A stretch of 54,638 nt of DNA from Chloroflexota bacterium (GCA_040003165.1 JBDUDC010000001.1:1-54638), one strand, 5' to 3'. Positions 6,159 to 33,640 are shown, counted from the stretch's first letter. Program-made: numbers and translations. The notes: generated by a model from the letters alone, not told the origin.

Positions 6159-8435
6159 ATGGGGGACATGACGCGCAGCGAGACCCCTCGACGCGTGGGC
6201 GAGCCAGCGACGGTGCGCGTCGCGATGTGGAGCTCCCGTCACCGATGGCCGGTTGCCGGGGCCTGGTTCGTGTTCACCATCGGCCTTTTCGCCCTCAGCC
6301 AGGTGCTGGGCGGCATCCGCACCGACGACCCGAACGGCAGCCCGGAGGACGTGAAGACCGAGTCGGCGCGGGCATACGAGGCGTTCGGCGCCAGCGGCAG
6401 TGACACGCCGTCGGAGTCGGTGACGGTGGTCGTGACGCACCCGACCCTCCACGTCACCGATCCCGCCTTCCGGGCCTTCGTCACCAAGACCGTGAGCGAG
6501 CTGGCCGCATTGACGGTCAGCCAGTCCGGTCAGACGATCGGGGCCTTCGACCAGGTCGAGGATCCGATTACCGCCCCGCCGGAGTCCGGGCTCGTCTCGC
6601 CGGACGGGTCGGCGGCCCGCATCCTCGGCCACATCAAGGGCGATCAGGCCACCATCGACGCGCACCTCGTGCCGGTGAGGCCTGCAATCGCGTCGATCGA
6701 GGCGGATGCGGGCGCGTTCATCGTCCACTCGATCAGCGGCACGCTCACCAACGAGGACATCACCAAGCTGATCAACAGCAGCCTCGATCGGACCTTCGCG
6801 ACCATCGGTCTGACCTTCATCATCCTGCTGATCACCTTCGGCGCCCTCGTCGCGTCGCTGATCCCGCTCTTGCTGGCAACCACCGCCTTGCTGGCGGCAT
6901 TCGGAATCCTGGGCATCTTCAGCCAGGCCATCACGCCGGCAAGCCCGTACGCAACCCAGCTGGTGGTGCTCATCGGCCTCGCCGTGTCGGTCGACTACTC
7001 GCTCTTCATGATCACGCGCTTCCGCTCGGAGCGCCGCCGTTGCGTCGACAAGCTGCTCGCGATCGAGACCGCCAGCAGCACGGCCGGTCGGGCGGTCTTC
7101 TTCAGCGGCCTCGCGGTGATGATCTCGATCGCCAGCCTGTTCATGATCGACGTCTCGATCTTCCGGTCGATGGCGATCGGCACCATCGGCGTGATTCTGG
7201 TGGCAGTCATCGGGAGCCTCACCTTCCTGCCCGCCACGCTCGCGATCCTCGGAGATCGCATCAATGCCGGGCGCATCCCGTTCTTTGGCCGCGATCGAGC
7301 CGAGGGCAGCGGGCTGTGGTCGATGCTGGTATCGGCCGTCATGCGGAGGCCGATTCGACTCGCGCTGGTGGCGACAGCGGCCCTGCTGGCCCTGGCCGCT
7401 CCGACGCTGCACCTGAGGATCGGGGTGACCGACTTCACTTCATTCCCCGAGCAGATTGACGGCGTCCAGGCTGTGAAGCTGCTCAATGCGAAATGGCCGC
7501 AGGGGAGCACCCTCGATCTGTCGGTCGTGGTCACCGGCTTCGATCGGGCCGATGTGAAGGCGGCGGTCGATGCGTTTCAGACCACCGGGCTCAAGGTCCC
7601 GGGGCTGAGTGGCCCGGCGCATGTCAACACATCGCGCGATGGCAACGTCGCGCTCATCTCATTCACCCTGGCCGGCACGCAGAACGACCCGGCCAGCCAG
7701 GCGGTCGTGCGCCACATACGCGCCGATGTCGTCCCGAAGGCGTTCGGCGGCCTCCCCGGTGTGCACGCATATGTCACCGGCCAGGCGGCGCAGGCCATGG
7801 ACGTGACCCAGATCTACCTCGATGCCATGCCGCTCGTGTTCGCCTTTGTCCTCGGGCTCTCGTTCCTGCTCCTGCTGGTGGTCTTCCACTCACTGATCAT
7901 CCCGCTGAAGGCCCTGGCCCTGAACCTCCTCTCGACCGCCGCGGCCTTTGGGGTAATGGTGGCGGTCTTCCAGGATGGGATCGTCGGCCACGCCTTCGGC
8001 CTCGAGCAGTCGAGCGTCATCGAGAGCTGGGTGCCGATCTTCGTCTTCGCGATCCTGTTCGGCCTCTCGATGGACTACCACGTCTTCATCCTGACGCGGG
8101 TCAAAGAGGCCCGCGATCGTGGGCTCGACTCGCGGTCCGCGGTCGCGCGGGGGATCTCGATCACCGCCGGTACGGTCACCAGCGCGGCGACGATCATGGT
8201 GCTCGTCTTCGCGGCTTTCGTGACGATCCCATTCGCCTTCATCCAGGAGCTGGGCCTGGGGCTCGCCGTCGCGGTGCTGCTCGACGCCACGGTGGTGCGC
8301 AGCGTCCTGCTGCCGGCCAGCATGACCCTGCTCGGGGACTGGAACTGGTGGCTGCCGGGCTTCCTGCGCTGGCTGCCGCGGGTGACGATCGAAGGTGAGC
8401 CCGAAGCGCGTCCGGCGTCCGCTCCTTTGACGTAG
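6159..8435 (+). CDS. MMPL/RND-superfamily membrane transporter
   Basis: 758 aa with two 6-TM bundles separated by large loops and conserved SVDYSLF / SMDYHVFIL motifs. The start may instead be 6168. Confidence 0.9.
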   Translation: MGDMTRSETPRRVGEPATVRVAMWSSRHRWPVAGAWFVFTIGLFALSQVLGGIRTDDPNGSPEDVKTESARAYEAFGASGSDTPSESVTVVVTHPTLHVTDPAFRAFVTKTVSELAALTVSQSGQTIGAFDQVEDPITAPPESGLVSPDGSAARILGHIKGDQATIDAHLVPVRPAIASIEADAGAFIVHSISGTLTNEDITKLINSSLDRTFATIGLTFIILLITFGALVASLIPLLLATTALLAAFGILGIFSQAITPASPYATQLVVLIGLAVSVDYSLFMITRFRSERRRCVDKLLAIETASSTAGRAVFFSGLAVMISIASLFMIDVSIFRSMAIGTIGVILVAVIGSLTFLPATLAILGDRINAGRIPFFGRDRAEGSGLWSMLVSAVMRRPIRLALVATAALLALAAPTLHLRIGVTDFTSFPEQIDGVQAVKLLNAKWPQGSTLDLSVVVTGFDRADVKAAVDAFQTTGLKVPGLSGPAHVNTSRDGNVALISFTLAGTQNDPASQAVVRHIRADVVPKAFGGLPGVHAYVTGQAAQAMDVTQIYLDAMPLVFAFVLGLSFLLLLVVFHSLIIPLKALALNLLSTAAAFGVMVAVFQDGIVGHAFGLEQSSVIESWVPIFVFAILFGLSMDYHVFILTRVKEARDRGLDSRSAVARGISITAGTVTSAATIMVLVFAAFVTIPFAFIQELGLGLAVAVLLDATVVRSVLLPASMTLLGDWNWWLPGFLRWLPRVTIEGEPEARPASAPLT

Positions 8436-8468
8436 CGACGGCGGCCGCGGCATCCTCACTGGCGCTGG

Positions 8469-9005
8469 CTACCAGATGCGTCCCGGGTCACATTCGATGG
8501 TCAGCATGCCGTCGAGGTCAAAGTCCGGCGTACCCCTCAGCCGCAGGATCATGACCCCCTCCTGATCGGGCGTTGGGATCAGCGTTCGTCCACTGAGTCC
8601 CGCGAGCGCACCACGCCACAGCTCCCAGCCCAAGCGCTCGTAGAACTGAGGGATATCCGTCTGCAGGCAGGCGACATCGTAGTCATCAACGTTCGTCCCC
8701 AAGAGCTTCAGGACAGCGGTCGCGTGCCCCTGGCCCTGGCGGGCCGGCTTCGTCGCCACGGCATCCACGTAGGCAGTCTTCAAGCGGCGCTCCCCTTCGA
8801 GATGAAGCCAGCGCGTCGTGACCACCGCGTGGCTTACCAACTCCCTGCCGCGATAGGCCATGAAGTGCCGCCCACCGGACGGAATGTACGAAAAGAGTCG
8901 CTCGAAGTCCTGTTCACGGTGAGCGCCGATGCACACCCGGACGATCTCGGCCCGCGTTTCTGCGTCGAGGTCCTCGGTGGCCAAGGAGCTGATGGTGGTG
9001 GCCAT
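8469..9005 (-). CDS. GNAT acetyltransferase resembling aminoglycoside 2'-N-acetyltransferase AAC(2')
   Basis: Colinear resemblance to mycobacterial AAC(2')-I: DLDAETRAEI, GGRHFMAY..SHAVV, YVDAVAT..QGQG, FYERLGW, and a C-terminal ...CDPGRIW. Confidence 0.75.
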   Translation of the reverse strand: MATTISSLATEDLDAETRAEIVRVCIGAHREQDFERLFSYIPSGGRHFMAYRGRELVSHAVVTTRWLHLEGERRLKTAYVDAVATKPARQGQGHATAVLKLLGTNVDDYDVACLQTDIPQFYERLGWELWRGALAGLSGRTLIPTPDQEGVMILRLRGTPDFDLDGMLTIECDPGRIW

Positions 9006-25797: not shown

Positions 25798-26091
25798 TTA
25801 TCGAGCAACCTGCTGCAGGAGCCGATAGATTTCGAGCACCTGCTGATCGGCAAGTCGGTAGAAGATCGTGTTTCCGTCGCGCCGCGAGGTGACGATCCCC
25901 GCCGTGCGCAGGATCGCCAGGTGCTGGCTCATGTTCGGGACCTGGCAGCCGACCTCGCGGGAGAGGTCACTCACCGAATGCTCCCCGTCTGCCAGCCGCT
26001 CAAGGACGCAGAGCCGTTTGGGGTCAGCGAGTGCGCGCGCGATGGCGGCGCTGCGCTCACGGTCTGTATCGGTGCTGGCTATGACGGGCAT
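25798..26091 (-). CDS. ArsR/SmtB-family metalloregulator-type transcriptional repressor
   Basis: 97 aa. LADPKRLCVLERLADGEHSVSDLSREVGCQVPNMSQHLAILRTAGIV winged HTH. Sits upstream of trxA on the same strand. Confidence 0.85.
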   Translation of the reverse strand: MPVIASTDTDRERSAAIARALADPKRLCVLERLADGEHSVSDLSREVGCQVPNMSQHLAILRTAGIVTSRRDGNTIFYRLADQQVLEIYRLLQQVAR

Positions 26092-26110
26092 GCGGGGATT
26101 GTCTCATCGT

Positions 26111-26126
26111 TTGCGCAATAACGCAA
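26111..26126. promoter_or_regulatory. Candidate operator: 8-bp palindrome TTGCGCAA plus adjacent CGCAA half-site
   Basis: Lies in the divergent arsR / zinc-ribbon intergenic region, about 20 nt upstream of the arsR ATG. The arms are short, so the evidence is weak. Confidence 0.2.
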
Positions 26127-26199
26127 GTAGAACGGAACGTGCCCCAGGGGGAAGAATTGCGACACACGAGTTGTCACGAGCCGTGCCGAGACTCGCGCC

Positions 26200-26355
26200 A
26201 TGACTGTTCTGCTCACCTGCCCCTGGTGCGACGACGAGGTCGCCTTCCTGGTGGACGAGGCCGACGACGAGATCGTCTGCACCGCCTGCAACACCCGGAT
26301 GGCCTTCGCGCCGGACCCCATCACCACGTTCGACCTGCTCTACCAGGCCGCCTGA
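26200..26355 (+). CDS. Small zinc-ribbon protein (51 aa)
   Basis: Below the track length cut-off, so hand translated: MTVLLTCPWCDDEVAFLVDEADDEIVCTACNTRMAFAPDPITTFDLLYQAA. CxxC...CxxC motif, high GC3. Confidence 0.45.
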   Translation: MTVLLTCPWCDDEVAFLVDEADDEIVCTACNTRMAFAPDPITTFDLLYQAA

Positions 26356-26362
26356 CACCACG

Positions 26363-26392
26363 CTGCCGAGCCGGCTGAGGCCGACTCGGCAG
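26363..26392. terminator. Bidirectional terminator-like hairpin between convergent genes
   Basis: CTGCCGAG-(14 nt)-CTCGGCAG, an 8-bp perfect stem. Confidence 0.35.
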
Positions 26393-26410
26393 GGAGGCCG
26401 CCGCCCGGAA

Positions 26411-26923
26411 TCAGGGCCGCTGGAGCGCTCGGGATGCGATGGTCCGCATGCCGCCGCGCAAGACGACGAGCGCGGCGAGGAGGAGCCCGGCGCCGACGGC
26501 GAGGATGAACGGCACGGCGGAGCCGCCGGCCTCGGGAGCCGCCGCTGCGGCCCGGACCTGAAGCGGCTCGAGGGCCGTCTGGACCTCCAGCTGGTCGGGC
26601 ATGGTGACTGACCATTGCCAGCTGCCTGAGGTCGGGAGGGTCACGTCGACCACCCAATGACCCGGCTTCCCCTCGGTGCGCGCCTTGTAGGCGAGTACCT
26701 GCCCGTCAGGGCCGATCGCGTTGACGATCACAGTTCCCTGGCCAACGGGGGTCCTGCCGTGCTGGAGGACCGTGAAGCCGACGGTGGTGGTCTGGCCGGC
26801 CACCGGCCCAGCCGTGGCCGGGTCCGGGGTGACCGTTGCCCAGCCGCCGGCCATCGCCGCTCCAGCGCTGAGGAGCAGCGCAGCCGACGCGATAGATGAT
26901 GCGAGAGTCACTCGCTGGCGCAT
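26411..26923 (-). CDS. Secreted protein with C-terminal TM anchor, paralog 1 (possible FixH/YtkA-like Ig fold)
   Basis: Signal peptide ...AGAAMA|GGWATV, a ~110-aa beta-rich domain (GHWVVDVTLPTSGSWQWSVTM), Ala/Pro linker, TM segment and basic tail. Paralogous to 27041..27577. Confidence 0.65.
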   Translation of the reverse strand: MRQRVTLASSIASAALLLSAGAAMAGGWATVTPDPATAGPVAGQTTTVGFTVLQHGRTPVGQGTVIVNAIGPDGQVLAYKARTEGKPGHWVVDVTLPTSGSWQWSVTMPDQLEVQTALEPLQVRAAAAAPEAGGSAVPFILAVGAGLLLAALVVLRGGMRTIASRALQRP

Positions 26924-26950
26924 GGTGTTTGCCTCTGCGGTATGTGCCTT

Positions 26951-26979
26951 ATCTACCCATCTCCCCGGGCATCGGTTCC
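26951..26979 (-). promoter_or_regulatory. ECF-type promoter GGAACC-N17-GTAGAT upstream of paralog 1
   Basis: Minus strand reads GGAACCgatgcccggggagatggGTAGAT, 27 nt upstream of the ATG at 26923. Same architecture as at 27611-27639 and 27652-27680. Confidence 0.5.
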
Positions 26980-27040
26980 ATCGCGGGGACCACTTCCGTT
27001 GACGGCGGGCCGGATCCCCGGCGCAGGCTTGAGCTCCGAG

Positions 27041-27577
27041 TCAGGAGCGTCCCAGCGCGCGCGAGGCGGCCGTTCGCAGGCTGCCGCGGAGCGCGATGCC
27101 GAATGCCGCCAGGAGCAGCGCCGCAAAGGCGGGAACCAGGATTGGCAGCGCGGAGCCGCCGCTGGTCGGGACGGGCGCGACTGCGGCGACCTGCAACGGC
27201 TGCAATGGCGTCGTCACCGGCAGCTGGTCCGGCATCGTGACTGCCCAGCTCCAGCGACCCGCCTTTGGCAGCGTCAGCTCGACGACCCAATGGCCGGCTG
27301 TTCCCTGAGCTCGCGCGGGGAATGAGAGGAGCTTGCCGTCCGGGCCGGTCGCTTCGACGATTACCTCTCCCTGGCTGATCGGGGCCGTGCCTCGCTGCAG
27401 AAGCGTGAAGCCGATGCTCACCGGGCCGCCGGCGGTTGGCTTCGGCACACCCGGATCGAGCTCGACGGTCGCCCAGCCGCCCGCCCCGACCGGGGGCTCT
27501 TTGGCCAGCGCCGCACCGGCGCCGAGCAGCAGGACGGCGGATGCGATCAGCGAGGCGAGCGAGAGACTCTGGCGCAT
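27041..27577 (-). CDS. Secreted protein with C-terminal TM anchor, paralog 2
   Basis: Start taken at the ATG at 27577 (MRQSLSLASLIASA..), by analogy with paralog 1 and the shared RBS context cgcagaggca. GGWATVELDP...GHWVVELTLPKAGRWSWAVTM. Confidence 0.65.
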   Translation of the reverse strand: MRQSLSLASLIASAVLLLGAGAALAKEPPVGAGGWATVELDPGVPKPTAGGPVSIGFTLLQRGTAPISQGEVIVEATGPDGKLLSFPARAQGTAGHWVVELTLPKAGRWSWAVTMPDQLPVTTPLQPLQVAAVAPVPTSGGSALPILVPAFAALLLAAFGIALRGSLRTAASRALGRS

Positions 27578-27610
27578 GATGGGATGCCTCTGCGATTGTT
27601 CCAACGTCCG

Positions 27611-27639
27611 ATCTACACCCCCGGCCGCCTGACGGTTCC
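27611..27639 (-). promoter_or_regulatory. ECF-type promoter GGAACC-N17-GTAGAT upstream of paralog 2
   Basis: Minus strand reads GGAACCgtcaggcggccgggggtGTAGAT, 33 nt upstream of the ATG at 27577. Confidence 0.5.
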
Positions 27640-27651
27640 GTCGCGGTGGCG

Positions 27652-27680
27652 GGAACCCGGTCGGTTCGGCAGGTGTATCG
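27652..27680 (+). promoter_or_regulatory. ECF-type (autoregulatory) promoter GGAACC-N17-GTATCG upstream of the sigma factor gene
   Basis: GGAACCcggtcggttcggcaggtGTATCG. Its -35 element is back-to-back with that of the paralog 2 promoter, 12 nt apart. Confidence 0.5.
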
Positions 27681-27704
27681 GGATCAGCTGGTGGAGGGCC
27701 GTCA

Positions 27705-28265
27705 CTGACCGATACGGAGCTGGTCGAGCGGGCGCGGAATGGGGATGTGCCCGCCTACGAGGAGCTGATGCGTCGCCATGAATCGCTCGCCTTCCGCACG
27801 GCGTATCTGATCGTCGCCGATGCAGACGAGGCGCGCGATGCCGCGCAGGACGGATTTCTGCGGGCGTATGCGGCGCTGGGCCGCTTTCGGGCGGGTGCCG
27901 AGTTCCGACCGTGGCTGCTCCGCATCGTCGCCAACGCAGCGCGGAATCGACGGCGCGGCCGGACGCGACGAGCGGGCCTCGCGCTGCGCGCCGCGGCGGA
28001 TCGACAGGACGATCTCGCAGCCCCTTCCCCGGAGGTTGCGGTGCTGGCCGCCGAGCGGCGGGCACTGCTGCTGGCAGCAATCGAGCGCCTCAGCCTGGAG
28101 GATCGCGACGTGATCGTGATGCGGTGGTTCGCGGAGCTGAACGAGGCCGAGATGGCGGCCGCCCTCGACTGCCCGCGTGGGACCGTCAAATCTCGTCTCT
28201 CGCGAGCCATGGCCCGCCTCCGCCATCAGCTGCCTGATCGCGAGCTGGAGGGTCCCCATGACTGA
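27705..28265 (+). CDS. ECF-family RNA polymerase sigma factor (probable CTG start)
   Basis: Region 2 (PAYEELMRRHESLAFRTAYLIVADADEARDAAQDGFLRAY) and region 4 (LSLEDRDVIVMRWFAELNEAEMAAALDCPRGTVKSRLSRA). The track start is the GTG at 27747. However, the in-frame upstream LTDTELVERARNGDV matches the usual ECF N-terminus, and GGAGG lies 7 nt before the CTG at 27705. Confidence 0.85.
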   Translation: MTDTELVERARNGDVPAYEELMRRHESLAFRTAYLIVADADEARDAAQDGFLRAYAALGRFRAGAEFRPWLLRIVANAARNRRRGRTRRAGLALRAAADRQDDLAAPSPEVAVLAAERRALLLAAIERLSLEDRDVIVMRWFAELNEAEMAAALDCPRGTVKSRLSRAMARLRHQLPDRELEGPHD

Positions 28266-29025
28266 GCCGTTCGACTCTGCCCTCGACCGCGAGCTGTCGC
28301 AGCTGGCCGCCGAGATCGCACTCCCTCCGACGCCATCCCTTGCACTGGCGGTGGGAGCCACACTGCGCCAACCGCCGGCGCCATCCCGAATCGGGCTTCG
28401 CCTCTCACGCGGTCTCGTACTCGCCATCGTCGCGACGTTGCTGCTGGTCGGGATTGCGGCGGCGATCGGCATCGCGATCGGCGGGATCCGATTCGTCACC
28501 GGTTCGGGCACCCCGCCGCCGCTGCCCGCCGGCGTGGCAGCGCAGCGCGGACTGGGGAGGCTGGTCACCCTCGACGAGGCTCGGTCCGCGGTCGCATTCA
28601 CGATCCGCCTCCCGAGCGACGCTGCCCTGTCCGAGCCGGATCATGTCTATCTCTCGGCGCTGGCGCCGATGGGCGGCCGGGTCGGGCTGGTCTACGGCGA
28701 CCGGCCAGGGTTCCCTGCCGATCCGAAGAGCGGCATTGGGTTGCTGATCACCGAGTTCCGCGCCGACATCGGCCCAGACAGCTTCGAGAAGCTCATTCAG
28801 AAGGGCGTGCGCGTGGACGGAGTGACCGTCAACGGGCAGCCGGGCTACTGGGTCGCCGGCGGGAACCACTTCTTTTACTACCGCAACGCGGACGGCAGGG
28901 TTGTGGACGAGACGATGCGGCTGGTCGGGGACACGCTGATCTGGGCAGAGGGCGGCCTCACGCTTCGCATCGAAGGAGCGCCCTCGCTCGCGGCCGCCAG
29001 GGAGCTGGCAGCCTCGCTCCATTGA
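28258..29025 (+). CDS. Single-pass membrane protein with DUF4367-like extracytoplasmic domain (putative anti-sigma factor)
   Basis: ATG at 28258 overlaps the sigma stop (ATGACTGA). Short cytoplasmic N-terminus, one TM (LVLAIVATLLLVGIAAAIGIAIGG), and a C-terminal domain ...VNGQPGYWVAGG.HFF.... No ZAS HxxxCxxC motif. Confidence 0.7.
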   Translation: MTEPFDSALDRELSQLAAEIALPPTPSLALAVGATLRQPPAPSRIGLRLSRGLVLAIVATLLLVGIAAAIGIAIGGIRFVTGSGTPPPLPAGVAAQRGLGRLVTLDEARSAVAFTIRLPSDAALSEPDHVYLSALAPMGGRVGLVYGDRPGFPADPKSGIGLLITEFRADIGPDSFEKLIQKGVRVDGVTVNGQPGYWVAGGNHFFYYRNADGRVVDETMRLVGDTLIWAEGGLTLRIEGAPSLAAARELAASLH

Positions 29026-29038
29026 GCGTCGGAGTGCG

Positions 29039-31174
29039 TCAGCTGACGGTCGCGTCGATCCCCAGCTCTGCACACAGGAATTCGAGGGAGCGCCGCTCGC
29101 GCAGCATCAGCGCGGCCCGTCCGCGAGGACCGTGCCGCTCGCCGGCCAGCAGGAGCAGGTCGACGCTCCGCCCCAGCTCGCCGAGCCTGGTCAGCAGCCG
29201 GGCGGTATGCCGGAAATGCACGTTTTCGTCGAGCAGGCCATGGATGACGAGGACCGCTCCGCGCAGGTCGCCGGCGTGGGTCAGCACCGAGCTTGCGCGA
29301 TACCCGTCAGGGTTGGCCGCCGGCGTGCCCATGTAGCGCTCGGTGTACGCCGTGTCATAGCCGTCCCAATCGACGACCGGCGCGCCCGCCACGCCCACCT
29401 TGAACAGGTTCGGCTCGCGCGCCATGCAGAGCAGCGTCATGTAGCCGCCGTACGACCACCCGTACAGGCCGATGCGCCCGGGGTCTGCGTCTCCGCGCCT
29501 GACCATCTCACGGACGGCCGCCGCCTGGTCATCGACTTCGACGCTGCCCATCCGCCCGGCGAGTGCCGCCTCGAAGGCCACGCCCCGCCCGTGGGTGCCG
29601 CGGTTGTCGACGATCAGCACCCCGATCCCACGCTGGCGGAGCCACTGCGCGCGAAGGTCGACGGTGAGCGCCCAGGCGTTTCGCGCGCGCTGGGAATGCG
29701 GCCCGCCATAGACGGATAGGACCAGCGGCGGCGGGCCCCACGTGTGGTCGGGTCGGTAGAAGGCGCCATGCAGCGCGGTCAGGCCGTCGGCCGCGATCAG
29801 CTCCACCAGATCCGGCGGAGCGAGGCCGATCCTCGCCGCGTCGGCGCTCGGCTGGTGGACGGTCAGCGACTGACCGCCATCTCGTCCGTGGACGCTGACG
29901 CGCGGCCCTCGCTCGACGCTCGAGCAGGTGTCGACCCAGCGCTGCCCATCGGCGCTGGCGACCACCTCGTGCCAGCCCGGCTCATCGGTCAGGCGGACCG
30001 GGTCGCCGCCATCGAGCGAGACCGAATAGAGGTGCTGCTCGAGGACTCCCTCGCGTCCCGCCACGAAAAGCACCTCGTGCGCCTCGACGTTAACCTGCAC
30101 CACGCCGCCGACGGCCCACTCCCCGCTGGTGATGGGCCGAGCAGGTCCGTCGTCGCCCTCCCGCAGCTCGATGTGCCGGAAGCCGCTCGCCTCGGTCGTC
30201 CGCAGGATGCGACCATCGGTGAGGACGCGGGTGTCGTCGTCGAGGTTCAGCCACGGCTCCGACGTCTCGGTCCACAGTTCTTTGGCGACCCCATCCTGCG
30301 AGAGCACGCCCCAGCGCAGGGTGCGCTGGTCACGCGCCAGGATGGCGACCAGCCAGCCGCCGTCCGGTCGCGGTACGACGCGCGCCAGGTAGCCGTCGAC
30401 CTCGATCCCGGCGCCGGCCTCGCCCTGTCCCGTGGCGGCCACGACGTGCAGGCTCACCCGCGCGTTCTCCTGCCCGGCGAAGGGGTAGCGATGCACCTCG
30501 ACTTCGGACGCGTCCTCGCTCCAGTGCGGGATCACGAAGGCGGGCACCCGGCGCTCGTCGACCCGGGCGTAGGCCAGGAACGCCGAGTCCTCGCTCCACC
30601 ACAGGCCGTCGGTACGGTCGAGCTCCTCGGCCGCGACGAACTCGGGCAGGCCTGAGAAGAGGCCATCCTCGGCATCGTGGGTGGCGCGGCTCGGTGAGCC
30701 ACCCTCCACCAAGACCAGCCATACGTCGCCATCGACGACATAGGCGACCCGCCGGCCATCCGGAGCCAGCTTCGCGGCCTGGACGCCGCTGATGCCGGCG
30801 ATCTCCCGAGCCGGCTCGCCGCCGACGACCACGAAGAGCCGGCCGGCCAGCGGAACCAGCACCGTGGCCCGCTCGGCGCGTGATGCCCACGCGTAGTCGG
30901 TCACGCCAAGCTCGACCGTGCGCTGCCGCTGGCGCCGAAGCTCTTCCTCGCGGGAGAGGCTCTCCTCGCTGCGCGCCTCGGCGATCGGACCCATCAGCAG
31001 GCGTCGCTCGCCGGTCGCCAGCTCGTGTCGCCACAGGGAGCGGACGAGCGAGCCGTCCGACGAGGCGAGGTAGCTGATCGCATCCTCGCCGGGGACGAAC
31101 TCGATGCGACCCGGCGCGTCCATGCCGGGCAGTGGCTGTCGGACGAGGTCGTCGAGGGTCAGGCGGTCGGGCAT
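29039..31174 (-). CDS. S9 family peptidase (dipeptidyl-aminopeptidase / DPP IV-like)
   Basis: 711 aa. N-terminal propeller, nucleophile elbow YGWSYGGYM, and HGLLDENVH. Confidence 0.9.
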   Translation of the reverse strand: MPDRLTLDDLVRQPLPGMDAPGRIEFVPGEDAISYLASSDGSLVRSLWRHELATGERRLLMGPIAEARSEESLSREEELRRQRQRTVELGVTDYAWASRAERATVLVPLAGRLFVVVGGEPAREIAGISGVQAAKLAPDGRRVAYVVDGDVWLVLVEGGSPSRATHDAEDGLFSGLPEFVAAEELDRTDGLWWSEDSAFLAYARVDERRVPAFVIPHWSEDASEVEVHRYPFAGQENARVSLHVVAATGQGEAGAGIEVDGYLARVVPRPDGGWLVAILARDQRTLRWGVLSQDGVAKELWTETSEPWLNLDDDTRVLTDGRILRTTEASGFRHIELREGDDGPARPITSGEWAVGGVVQVNVEAHEVLFVAGREGVLEQHLYSVSLDGGDPVRLTDEPGWHEVVASADGQRWVDTCSSVERGPRVSVHGRDGGQSLTVHQPSADAARIGLAPPDLVELIAADGLTALHGAFYRPDHTWGPPPLVLSVYGGPHSQRARNAWALTVDLRAQWLRQRGIGVLIVDNRGTHGRGVAFEAALAGRMGSVEVDDQAAAVREMVRRGDADPGRIGLYGWSYGGYMTLLCMAREPNLFKVGVAGAPVVDWDGYDTAYTERYMGTPAANPDGYRASSVLTHAGDLRGAVLVIHGLLDENVHFRHTARLLTRLGELGRSVDLLLLAGERHGPRGRAALMLRERRSLEFLCAELGIDATVS

Positions 31175-33001: not shown

Positions 33002-33640
33002 CTAGTGCTGGAGGTCGATCACCAGCCGGTCGGGCTCGGTGAGCGTCGAGACCCGCAGGCAGCTCGCCCGCGAGAGCCCCGCATACCAGTTGCTGACCGC
33101 CTCGAAATCGCCGCCTTCGACCAGGTTGACGAGCACCGGGAAGGTAAGGGCGAAGTTGCGCGGGCCGCTGTAGCTCGAACCGCCGGTGCCGGTCATCTTG
33201 GTGGCGCCATGCAGCGTGATGCGCAGGAACGCGCTCCCCTGGACGGTCAGCGGCTGGCCGCTGGGGTCCTGCGTGAATGGGGGACTCGCGGTCTCAATGC
33301 TGTACTGCGGGACGCCGCCGCGGAACTGGAAGACGATGCGGTCGTAGCCGTCATGGGTGCCGACCCGCACGTCGCTGATGTTGGTGTGCGTGACGGTTCC
33401 GCTTCCCTCGACCGGCAGGCCGCAGGCGAATCCGGCCGCGCCGCTGGGCTCGACCGTGGGAAGCGAGGTCGCTGACGGAGATGGACTGGTCGAGGTCGCA
33501 GAGGGGGAGGGCTCCTCGGAGGCGCTGACGCTCGTGATGACCGGCGACGCCGGGCCGCCGCCGGTCCGGGTCACCGCGCACGCTGCCAGCAGCAGCGTCA
33601 GGCTCAGGATGGCGGTTCGGGTCGCGAGAGTGGGCGGCAT
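33002..33640 (-). CDS. AMIN-like domain lipoprotein
   Basis: ATG at 33640 preceded by GAGGAG. Lipobox LLLAACA, Ser/Pro linker, YDRIVFQFRGGVPQYSIE...LRITLHGA. The remaining upstream part of track ORF 33002..34744 is a shadow of citrate synthase. Confidence 0.65.
   Translation of the reverse strand: MPPTLATRTAILSLTLLLAACAVTRTGGGPASPVITSVSASEEPSPSATSTSPSPSATSLPTVEPSGAAGFACGLPVEGSGTVTHTNISDVRVGTHDGYDRIVFQFRGGVPQYSIETASPPFTQDPSGQPLTVQGSAFLRITLHGATKMTGTGGSSYSGPRNFALTFPVLVNLVEGGDFEAVSNWYAGLSRASCLRVSTLTEPDRLVIDLQH

Follow-up and report, generated by a model that had tools for sequence, protein, structure and literature searches.

A stretch of 54,638 bp of DNA from a Chloroflexota bacterium, hereafter the window, very probably encodes an autoregulated sigma/anti-sigma switch of the ECF204 type in Candidatus Limnocylindria (Chloroflexota), with three cognate promoters that serve the sigma operon itself and two neighbouring genes for secreted, membrane-anchored proteins. 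The features concerned are the following.

27705..28265, plus strand: ECF sigma factor gene, 186 aa from CTG 27705, or 172 aa from GTG 27747
28258..29025, plus strand: putative anti-sigma partner of 255 aa, with an ATG that overlaps the stop codon of sigma (ATGACTGA)
27652..27677, plus strand: predicted autoregulatory ECF promoter of the sigma/partner operon; -35 box GGAACC at 27652-27657, -10 block AGGTGTA at 27671-27677
27614..27639, minus strand: predicted ECF promoter of paralog 2; -35 box GGAACC at 27639-27634, -10 block GGGTGTA at 27620-27614
27041..27577, minus strand: paralog 2 (P2), 178 aa; signal peptide, Ig-like beta-sandwich (YtkA-like), C-terminal membrane helix and basic tail
26954..26979, minus strand: predicted ECF promoter of paralog 1; -35 box GGAACC at 26979-26974, -10 block ATGGGTA at 26960-26954
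26411..26923, minus strand: paralog 1 (P1), 170 aa; architecture like that of P2, 56% identity to P2

The initial annotation had described GGAACC-17 nt-GTAGAT on the minus strand at 26979-26951, 27 nt upstream of the P1 ATG (26923), and at 27639-27611, 33 nt upstream of the P2 ATG (27577), as well as GGAACC-17 nt-GTATCG on the plus strand at 27652-27680, upstream of the sigma gene. Coordinates and letters were confirmed for all three sites, each of which is oriented into a gene or operon (P1, P2 and sigma/partner, respectively), and so was the back-to-back arrangement of the -35 boxes at 27634-27639 and 27652-27657, the gap between them being 12 bp. The -10 box had been given as GTA; this triplet is present at every site, but the conserved -10 block is (C)GGTGTA, of which GTA is the 3' end. 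Compared with this consensus, the P1 site (-10 block ATGGGTA) is the weakest of the three.

A search of the two strands of the 54,638-bp window gives exactly three matches to the pattern GGAACC-N17-GTA, while dinucleotide-preserving shuffles (n=100) give an expectation of 0.02 (sd 0.14), and none of the 100 shuffled windows contained three matches. All other 22 copies of GGAACC in the window lack GTA at +17, as had been noted by eye. GGAACC by itself is found in 25 copies vs 22 expected, hence the enrichment is that of the bipartite combination only. Within the window, the sites of P1 and P2 are not independent of each other, since both precede paralogous genes; the comparison with other genomes described below removes this concern.

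The P1/P2 family is narrow, comprising 30 mostly metagenomic proteins. Sixteen loci found via these proteins are syntenic with the window and share the gene order S9 peptidase, partner, sigma, P2, P1, a 51-aa ORF, an ArsR-type gene, thioredoxin and an MFS gene. P1 and P2 form a tandem pair in all syntenic loci, and every syntenic locus covering the region has kept the three sites, with neither their orientation nor their 17-nt spacing changed. When the intergenic regions from nine distinct syntenic loci, whose P2 proteins are 62-86% identical, were aligned with MAFFT in an unbiased way, few columns proved invariant; the invariant blocks are GGAAC and GGTGTAGA and, on the other strand, GGTTCC and TAC; the Shine-Dalgarno sequences and start codons are likewise invariant, and the spacers and the inter-promoter stretch have diverged, with indels. 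Since both paralogs occur in all syntenic genomes, the duplication of P1 and P2 is old and the boxes have been kept by selection. In all syntenic loci the 170-aa paralog is preceded by the P1 site, L015 having GTTAGAT instead of GTGTAGAT.

Several further observations concern this region. The P1 -10 block has moved away from CGGTGTA, being ATGGGTA in the window (26954-26960, minus strand) and AGGGTTA in L015 (site at approximately 2537-2562); these two genomes also have about 50 nt more between P2 and P1 than the other relatives. An element GGAA(C/T)A, located approximately 12-17 nt downstream of the -10 box in the P2 and P1 leaders, is conserved in the clade (L001-L016); in the window it is found at 27593-27600 (minus strand), close to the predicted mRNA 5' end, and is absent from the P1 leader. 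The 51-aa ORF (26200-26355, plus strand) converges on P1, contains two CxxC pairs with weak zinc-ribbon matches, and is called in nearly all syntenic loci (as a 68-aa ORF in L015), with no motif upstream. Two loci, L005 and L006, are syntenic with the window apart from an extra 421-aa gene (7190-8455 and 7516-8781, respectively), which separates the 51-aa ORF from the ArsR-type gene and has no Pfam hit.

To reach beyond the syntenic loci, 48 loci from species-representative genomes were fetched with an alignment of nine homologues of the partner protein, and 41 of these 48 were usable, since they contain the N-terminus of sigma and 130 nt or more of upstream sequence. The motif was found upstream of the sigma operon in 41/41 usable distant loci, counts that are non-independent as the related loci are partly of common ancestry: in 37 it lies at most 120 nt upstream of the sigma gene, and in the remaining four a same-strand gene intervenes between the motif and the sigma gene. 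The related loci belong to Candidatus Limnocylindria, Chloroflexota and Chloroflexia; the more distant ones, which are metagenome-assembled, belong to Dehalococcoidia, Thermomicrobiaceae, Microthrixaceae, Gaiellaceae and other Actinomycetes. A core of GGAACC-N13-CGGTGTA is conserved, and the distance from GGAACC to GTA is fixed at 17 nt, while back-to-back -35 boxes are separated by anything between 1 and 40 bp, depending on the lineage. Several Limnocylindria lineages have no site other than the sigma-proximal one within +/-6 kb, which indicates that the neighbouring targets are lineage-specific.

The same core was predicted for the group ECF204, for which 'GGAACC in -35 and CGGTGTA in -10' is given in the supplement of the ECF classification 2.0 (Casas-Pastor et al. 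2021; bioRxiv 10.1101/2019.12.11.873521), and within the searchable text of that supplement GGAACC is confined to ECF204 entries. The initial proposal of an autoregulated sigma factor with a local regulon is supported by the enrichment of the motif, by its conservation in all syntenic loci and in the 41 distant ones, and by the published ECF204 motif. The regulon had also been called self-contained, a statement that is limited to the 54.6-kb window.

We built a weight matrix from 72 unique sites of orthologous loci, the window being excluded. Its information content is high only at GGAACC and (C)GGTGTA and near zero in the 13-nt spacer and the flanks; the frequency of C at position 19 is 0.68, and each of the positions 20-25 (GGTGTA) has a frequency of at least 0.91. 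With this matrix, which serves as a ranking aid and not as independent proof because the box positions had been pre-selected by a regular expression, the P2 site scores 26.8 bits, the sigma site 26.7 bits and the P1 site 22.3 bits; the next-best position in the window scores 2.3 bits, and the maximum over each of 100 random sequences is 6.6 +/- 2.6 bits on average and 15.7 bits at the highest. A fourth candidate site, GGAACT-N16-GTA at 33322-33346 (plus strand), was rejected: its spacing is wrong, its matrix score is low, and it lies within an AMIN-like coding sequence, in antisense orientation. It is conserved in L001, L002, L006 and L017, and we judged it to be a chance match preserved by coding constraint.

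The identification of the divergent gene as an ECF (group 4) sigma factor of the sigma-70 family was confirmed. The protein contains sigma-70 regions 2 and 4 only (Pfam Sigma70_r2, E 1.8e-13; r4/r4_2, E 2e-12), Pfam giving no match to region 1 or region 3; it matches TIGR02937 with 90.6 bits vs the cut-off of 42.9 and reaches no NCBIfam equivalog cut-off. The nearest solved structures are those of AlgU, RpoE and SigW (E 3e-24 to 4e-17). No second ECF sigma gene was found in the 54.6-kb window.

The start of the gene, previously set at GTG 27747, had to be corrected. GTG 27747 is the first canonical in-frame start, there being no ATG, GTG or TTG in the sigma frame between the stop at 27630 and this codon; the codons at 27705-27746, which encode the N-terminus LTDTELVERARNGD, are conserved among relatives, with changes mostly at third codon positions. 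CTG 27705 is a likely start, as it is situated 6 nt after GGAGGG (27693-27698), and the sigma protein probably begins there rather than at GTG 27747. The lengths assigned to the sigma protein by gene callers vary among relatives (172, 188, 200 or 235 aa).

In more than 30 relatives an in-frame GTG follows GTA by 10-14 nt, giving a gene that looks leaderless; examples are GTGGAGGGCCGTCCACTG (MEGRPL...) and GTGGAC... in Dehalococcoidia. This is the distance at which the first base of a leaderless sigma mRNA is expected, and it provides independent geometric support for the promoter. In the clade of the window and in L025 a 1-nt indel puts this GTG (27691 in the window) out of the sigma frame, where it opens a 5-codon mini-ORF, GTG GAG GGC CGT CAC TGA, the stop of which overlaps CTG 27705. 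The sigma start may have switched in this clade, from a presumably ancestral leaderless GTG in the relatives to a Shine-Dalgarno-preceded CTG behind the mini-ORF. For the sigma operon of the window we infer a transcription start at approximately 27688-27691. A programmed frameshift joining GTG 27691 to the sigma frame was considered and rejected, since the required shift differs between the window (-1) and L001 (+1) and no slippery site is present.

The gene downstream of sigma had been described as a DUF4367-type membrane partner. The membrane part of this description stands, as a single membrane helix is predicted; the DUF4367 label is weakly supported, since the window protein has no Pfam hit, even at E <= 10, and no NCBIfam hit, and DUF4367 (PF14285) gives weak matches in five of 22 partner homologues (best E 0.0024). 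Weak matches to DUF3040 were seen in three of the 22. Pfam revealed no zf-HC2 or RskA match in the window partner, and a Foldseek search with the full-length model returned nothing at E <= 0.001. In the AlphaFold model (pLDDT 78.5) two short N-terminal helices are followed by one membrane helix at approximately 51-76 and by an outer part that forms an extracytoplasmic alpha/beta domain. The partner always adjoins the sigma gene in related loci. Its gene position, translational coupling and topology make it a putative anti-sigma factor.

Other readings of the three sites were weighed against this one. It might be that the sigma-proximal site alone works, the sites at P1 and P2 being passengers of the duplication or weak relics and the two genes being expressed otherwise; the upstream regions of the paralogs do align with each other, and both the window and L015 have a degenerate P1 -10 box. 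We regard this as very improbable: the duplication is old, with 56% identity between copies that both occur in all relatives, yet the boxes are invariant while the 13-nt spacers and the flanks have diverged; single P-like or cupredoxin genes of other lineages are also preceded by the motif; and no sigma-70-type promoter is detectable at P1/P2 (26300-29200). Hardly credible is the view of the sites as operators of a DNA-binding regulator, for example the nearby protein of the ArsR family, the gene of which (25798-26091) is 1 kb away. It would account for the inverted repeat GGTTCC-N12-GGAACC at 27634-27657, but the wide variation of the distance between the two GGAACC boxes in the relatives, at a constant distance from GGAACC to GTA, argues against a single palindromic operator. 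Moreover, the P1 site and most sigma-proximal sites of other lineages have no inverted partner, and each site is bipartite, asymmetric and always faces a gene at promoter distance.

Alternatively, the main reader of the motif could be another ECF sigma factor, with a gene elsewhere in the genome, by cross-talk or in a cascade; the adjacent sigma would then be a target and not the reader. GGAAC-type -35 boxes are common to many ECF groups, and the 54.6 kb of the window offer a limited view of the genome. Nevertheless, we find this explanation improbable: the motif accompanies the sigma/partner pair across phyla, in all 41 loci; it is the one predicted for ECF204, the group that the adjacent sigma resembles and the only one with GGAACC in the searchable supplement text; and the window has no other ECF sigma gene.

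In the reading that we prefer, an autoregulated sigma/anti-sigma switch, the sigma factor would in the resting state be held at the membrane by its co-translated single-pass partner. An envelope signal, either sensed by the outer domain of the partner or acting on it, would release sigma; both steps are modelled on RpoE/RseA and SigW/RsiW. The sigma-RNA polymerase holoenzyme would then recognise GGAACC as the -35 box and (C)GGTGTA, 13 nt apart from it, as the -10 box, with transcription predicted to start approximately 10-14 nt after GTA. It would transcribe its own operon, resulting in positive feedback, as well as P2 and P1, the presumed products of which are secreted, C-terminally anchored, YtkA-like Ig-fold proteins.

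That P1 and P2 are two secreted anchored proteins, as originally proposed, agrees with the signal peptide and the C-terminal membrane helix found in both. An AlphaFold model of the P1/P2 type (pLDDT 75) has an Ig-like fold with filamin-type Ig matches. The Pfam family YtkA-like (PF13115) matches P1 with 18.7 bits and P2 with 21.6 bits (E 3.5e-4), both under the gathering cut-off of 25.9, and it is the best family for all 22 family members (P1, P2 and 20 relatives; best E 7.1e-6). No match was obtained when PDB sequences were searched with a profile of the P1/P2 family. The Pfam matches and the predicted Ig fold suggest a distant relationship of P1 and P2 to YtkA-like proteins, with membership in the family not demonstrated.

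The weak -10 box of P1, together with the lack of a terminator or stable structure between P2 and P1, points to read-through from the P2 promoter, which probably contributes to P1 expression and could even be its main source. No intrinsic terminators were found at 26300-29200 and no Rfam families at 26000-29200, and a test for structured RNA or a terminator between P2 and P1 was not significant (z-score -0.72).

Further copies of the motif in other lineages also precede genes for secreted, C-terminally membrane-anchored proteins. The targets of these second sites are listed below.

L025 and L044: P1/P2 homologues
L022, L028, L035, L037 and L049: proteins of 185-194 aa with the N-terminus KCEH...C.GM ('KCEH' proteins)
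L056, L058 and L062: membrane-anchored cupredoxins of 181-203 aa with the copper-site signature C-x2-H-x2-M

The cupredoxin loci (L056, 4488-5100; L058, 4571-5180; L062, 4683-5340) belong to distant Chloroflexota. The L056 and L062 proteins exceed the Pfam cut-off for the plastocyanin/azurin family, and the L058 protein resembles that of L056 by inspection of the translations. The cupredoxin gene is situated upstream of the sigma gene in L056 and L058 and downstream of the partner gene in L062.

The similarity to YtkA/CtaK and the cupredoxin targets in distant relatives suggest a role in copper handling or in the envelope, and P1 and P2 may take part in extracytoplasmic copper handling. For these two proteins the copper role stays hypothetical, because no conserved set of His/Met/Cys copper ligands is evident in the P1/P2 alignment; the window contains no oxidase genes linked to P1 and P2. 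A broader reading, which we put forward tentatively and consider rather unlikely as a whole, is that sigma factors of the ECF204 type control a small module for extracytoplasmic copper handling or respiratory maturation, that the partner senses copper or redox state in the envelope, and that the sigma start was switched in the clade of the window. The module would then consist of tandem YtkA/CtaK-like Ig-fold proteins in Limnocylindria and of membrane-anchored type-1 cupredoxins in other Chloroflexota.

In summary, the ECF204 promoter motif was already predicted in the literature, and new here are the first candidate targets for this uncharacterised group, in a Chloroflexota class from soil and freshwater that is uncultured. 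With the well-supported promoter motif and the candidate targets, the system lends itself to a direct test in which a heterologous host expresses the sigma factor together with the three promoters, and it could supply an orthogonal sigma/promoter pair for synthetic biology. The view of how ECF sigma factors work is unchanged by this result.

The predicted switch resembles the envelope-stress systems RpoE/RseA of E. coli, AlgU/MucA of P. aeruginosa and SigW/RsiW of B. subtilis in having a sigma/anti-sigma operon with positive autoregulation. RpoE, AlgU and SigW promoters combine a -35 box of the GGAAC or TGAAAC type with a short -10 box that contains GT, and single-pass anti-sigma factors of the RseA, MucA and RsiW type are removed by regulated proteolysis. 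In contrast to these systems, neither an RseA nor a zinc-finger anti-sigma domain is detectable in the window partner, the -10 element (CGGTGTA) is longer, and the targets are unrelated.

YtkA of B. subtilis, now named CtaK, and the YtkA domain of YcnJ function in copper delivery to cytochrome oxidase (PMC13344008). P1 and P2 are also small extracytoplasmic membrane-tethered proteins with a predicted Ig fold, but, unlike YtkA/CtaK, they are anchored by a C-terminal helix and not by a lipid.

The closest likeness is that to ECF204. A full-text literature search found ECF204 in the main text of none of the papers covered, nor DUF4367 together with ECF, and from the former result the group appears to be experimentally unstudied. 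The searchable supplement of the ECF classification describes a putative one-helix anti-sigma factor at position +1 of ECF204 genes, in some cases with RskA, DUF3040 or DUF4367, and counts 365 members in Actinobacteria and four in Chloroflexi; its authors inferred autoregulation for large subgroups, and its ECF204 text reports no conserved context beyond the anti-sigma factor and names no targets (bioRxiv 10.1101/2019.12.11.873521). The window differs in that one or two adjacent target genes with the same promoter are found here and in many Limnocylindria, and in that its -10 blocks are AGGTGTA, GGGTGTA and ATGGGTA rather than CGGTGTA. At the same time, GGAACC-N13-AGGTGTA (27652-27677) lies upstream of the window sigma gene and relatives mostly have CGGTGTA; the +1 gene shares bases with the sigma stop codon, and its product has one predicted membrane helix and homologues with weak DUF4367 and DUF3040 matches; and the related loci come from Chloroflexota and Actinobacteria. 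In every feature tested, that is, the motif, the +1 gene and the taxon range, the predicted system fits ECF204, of which it is probably a new member.
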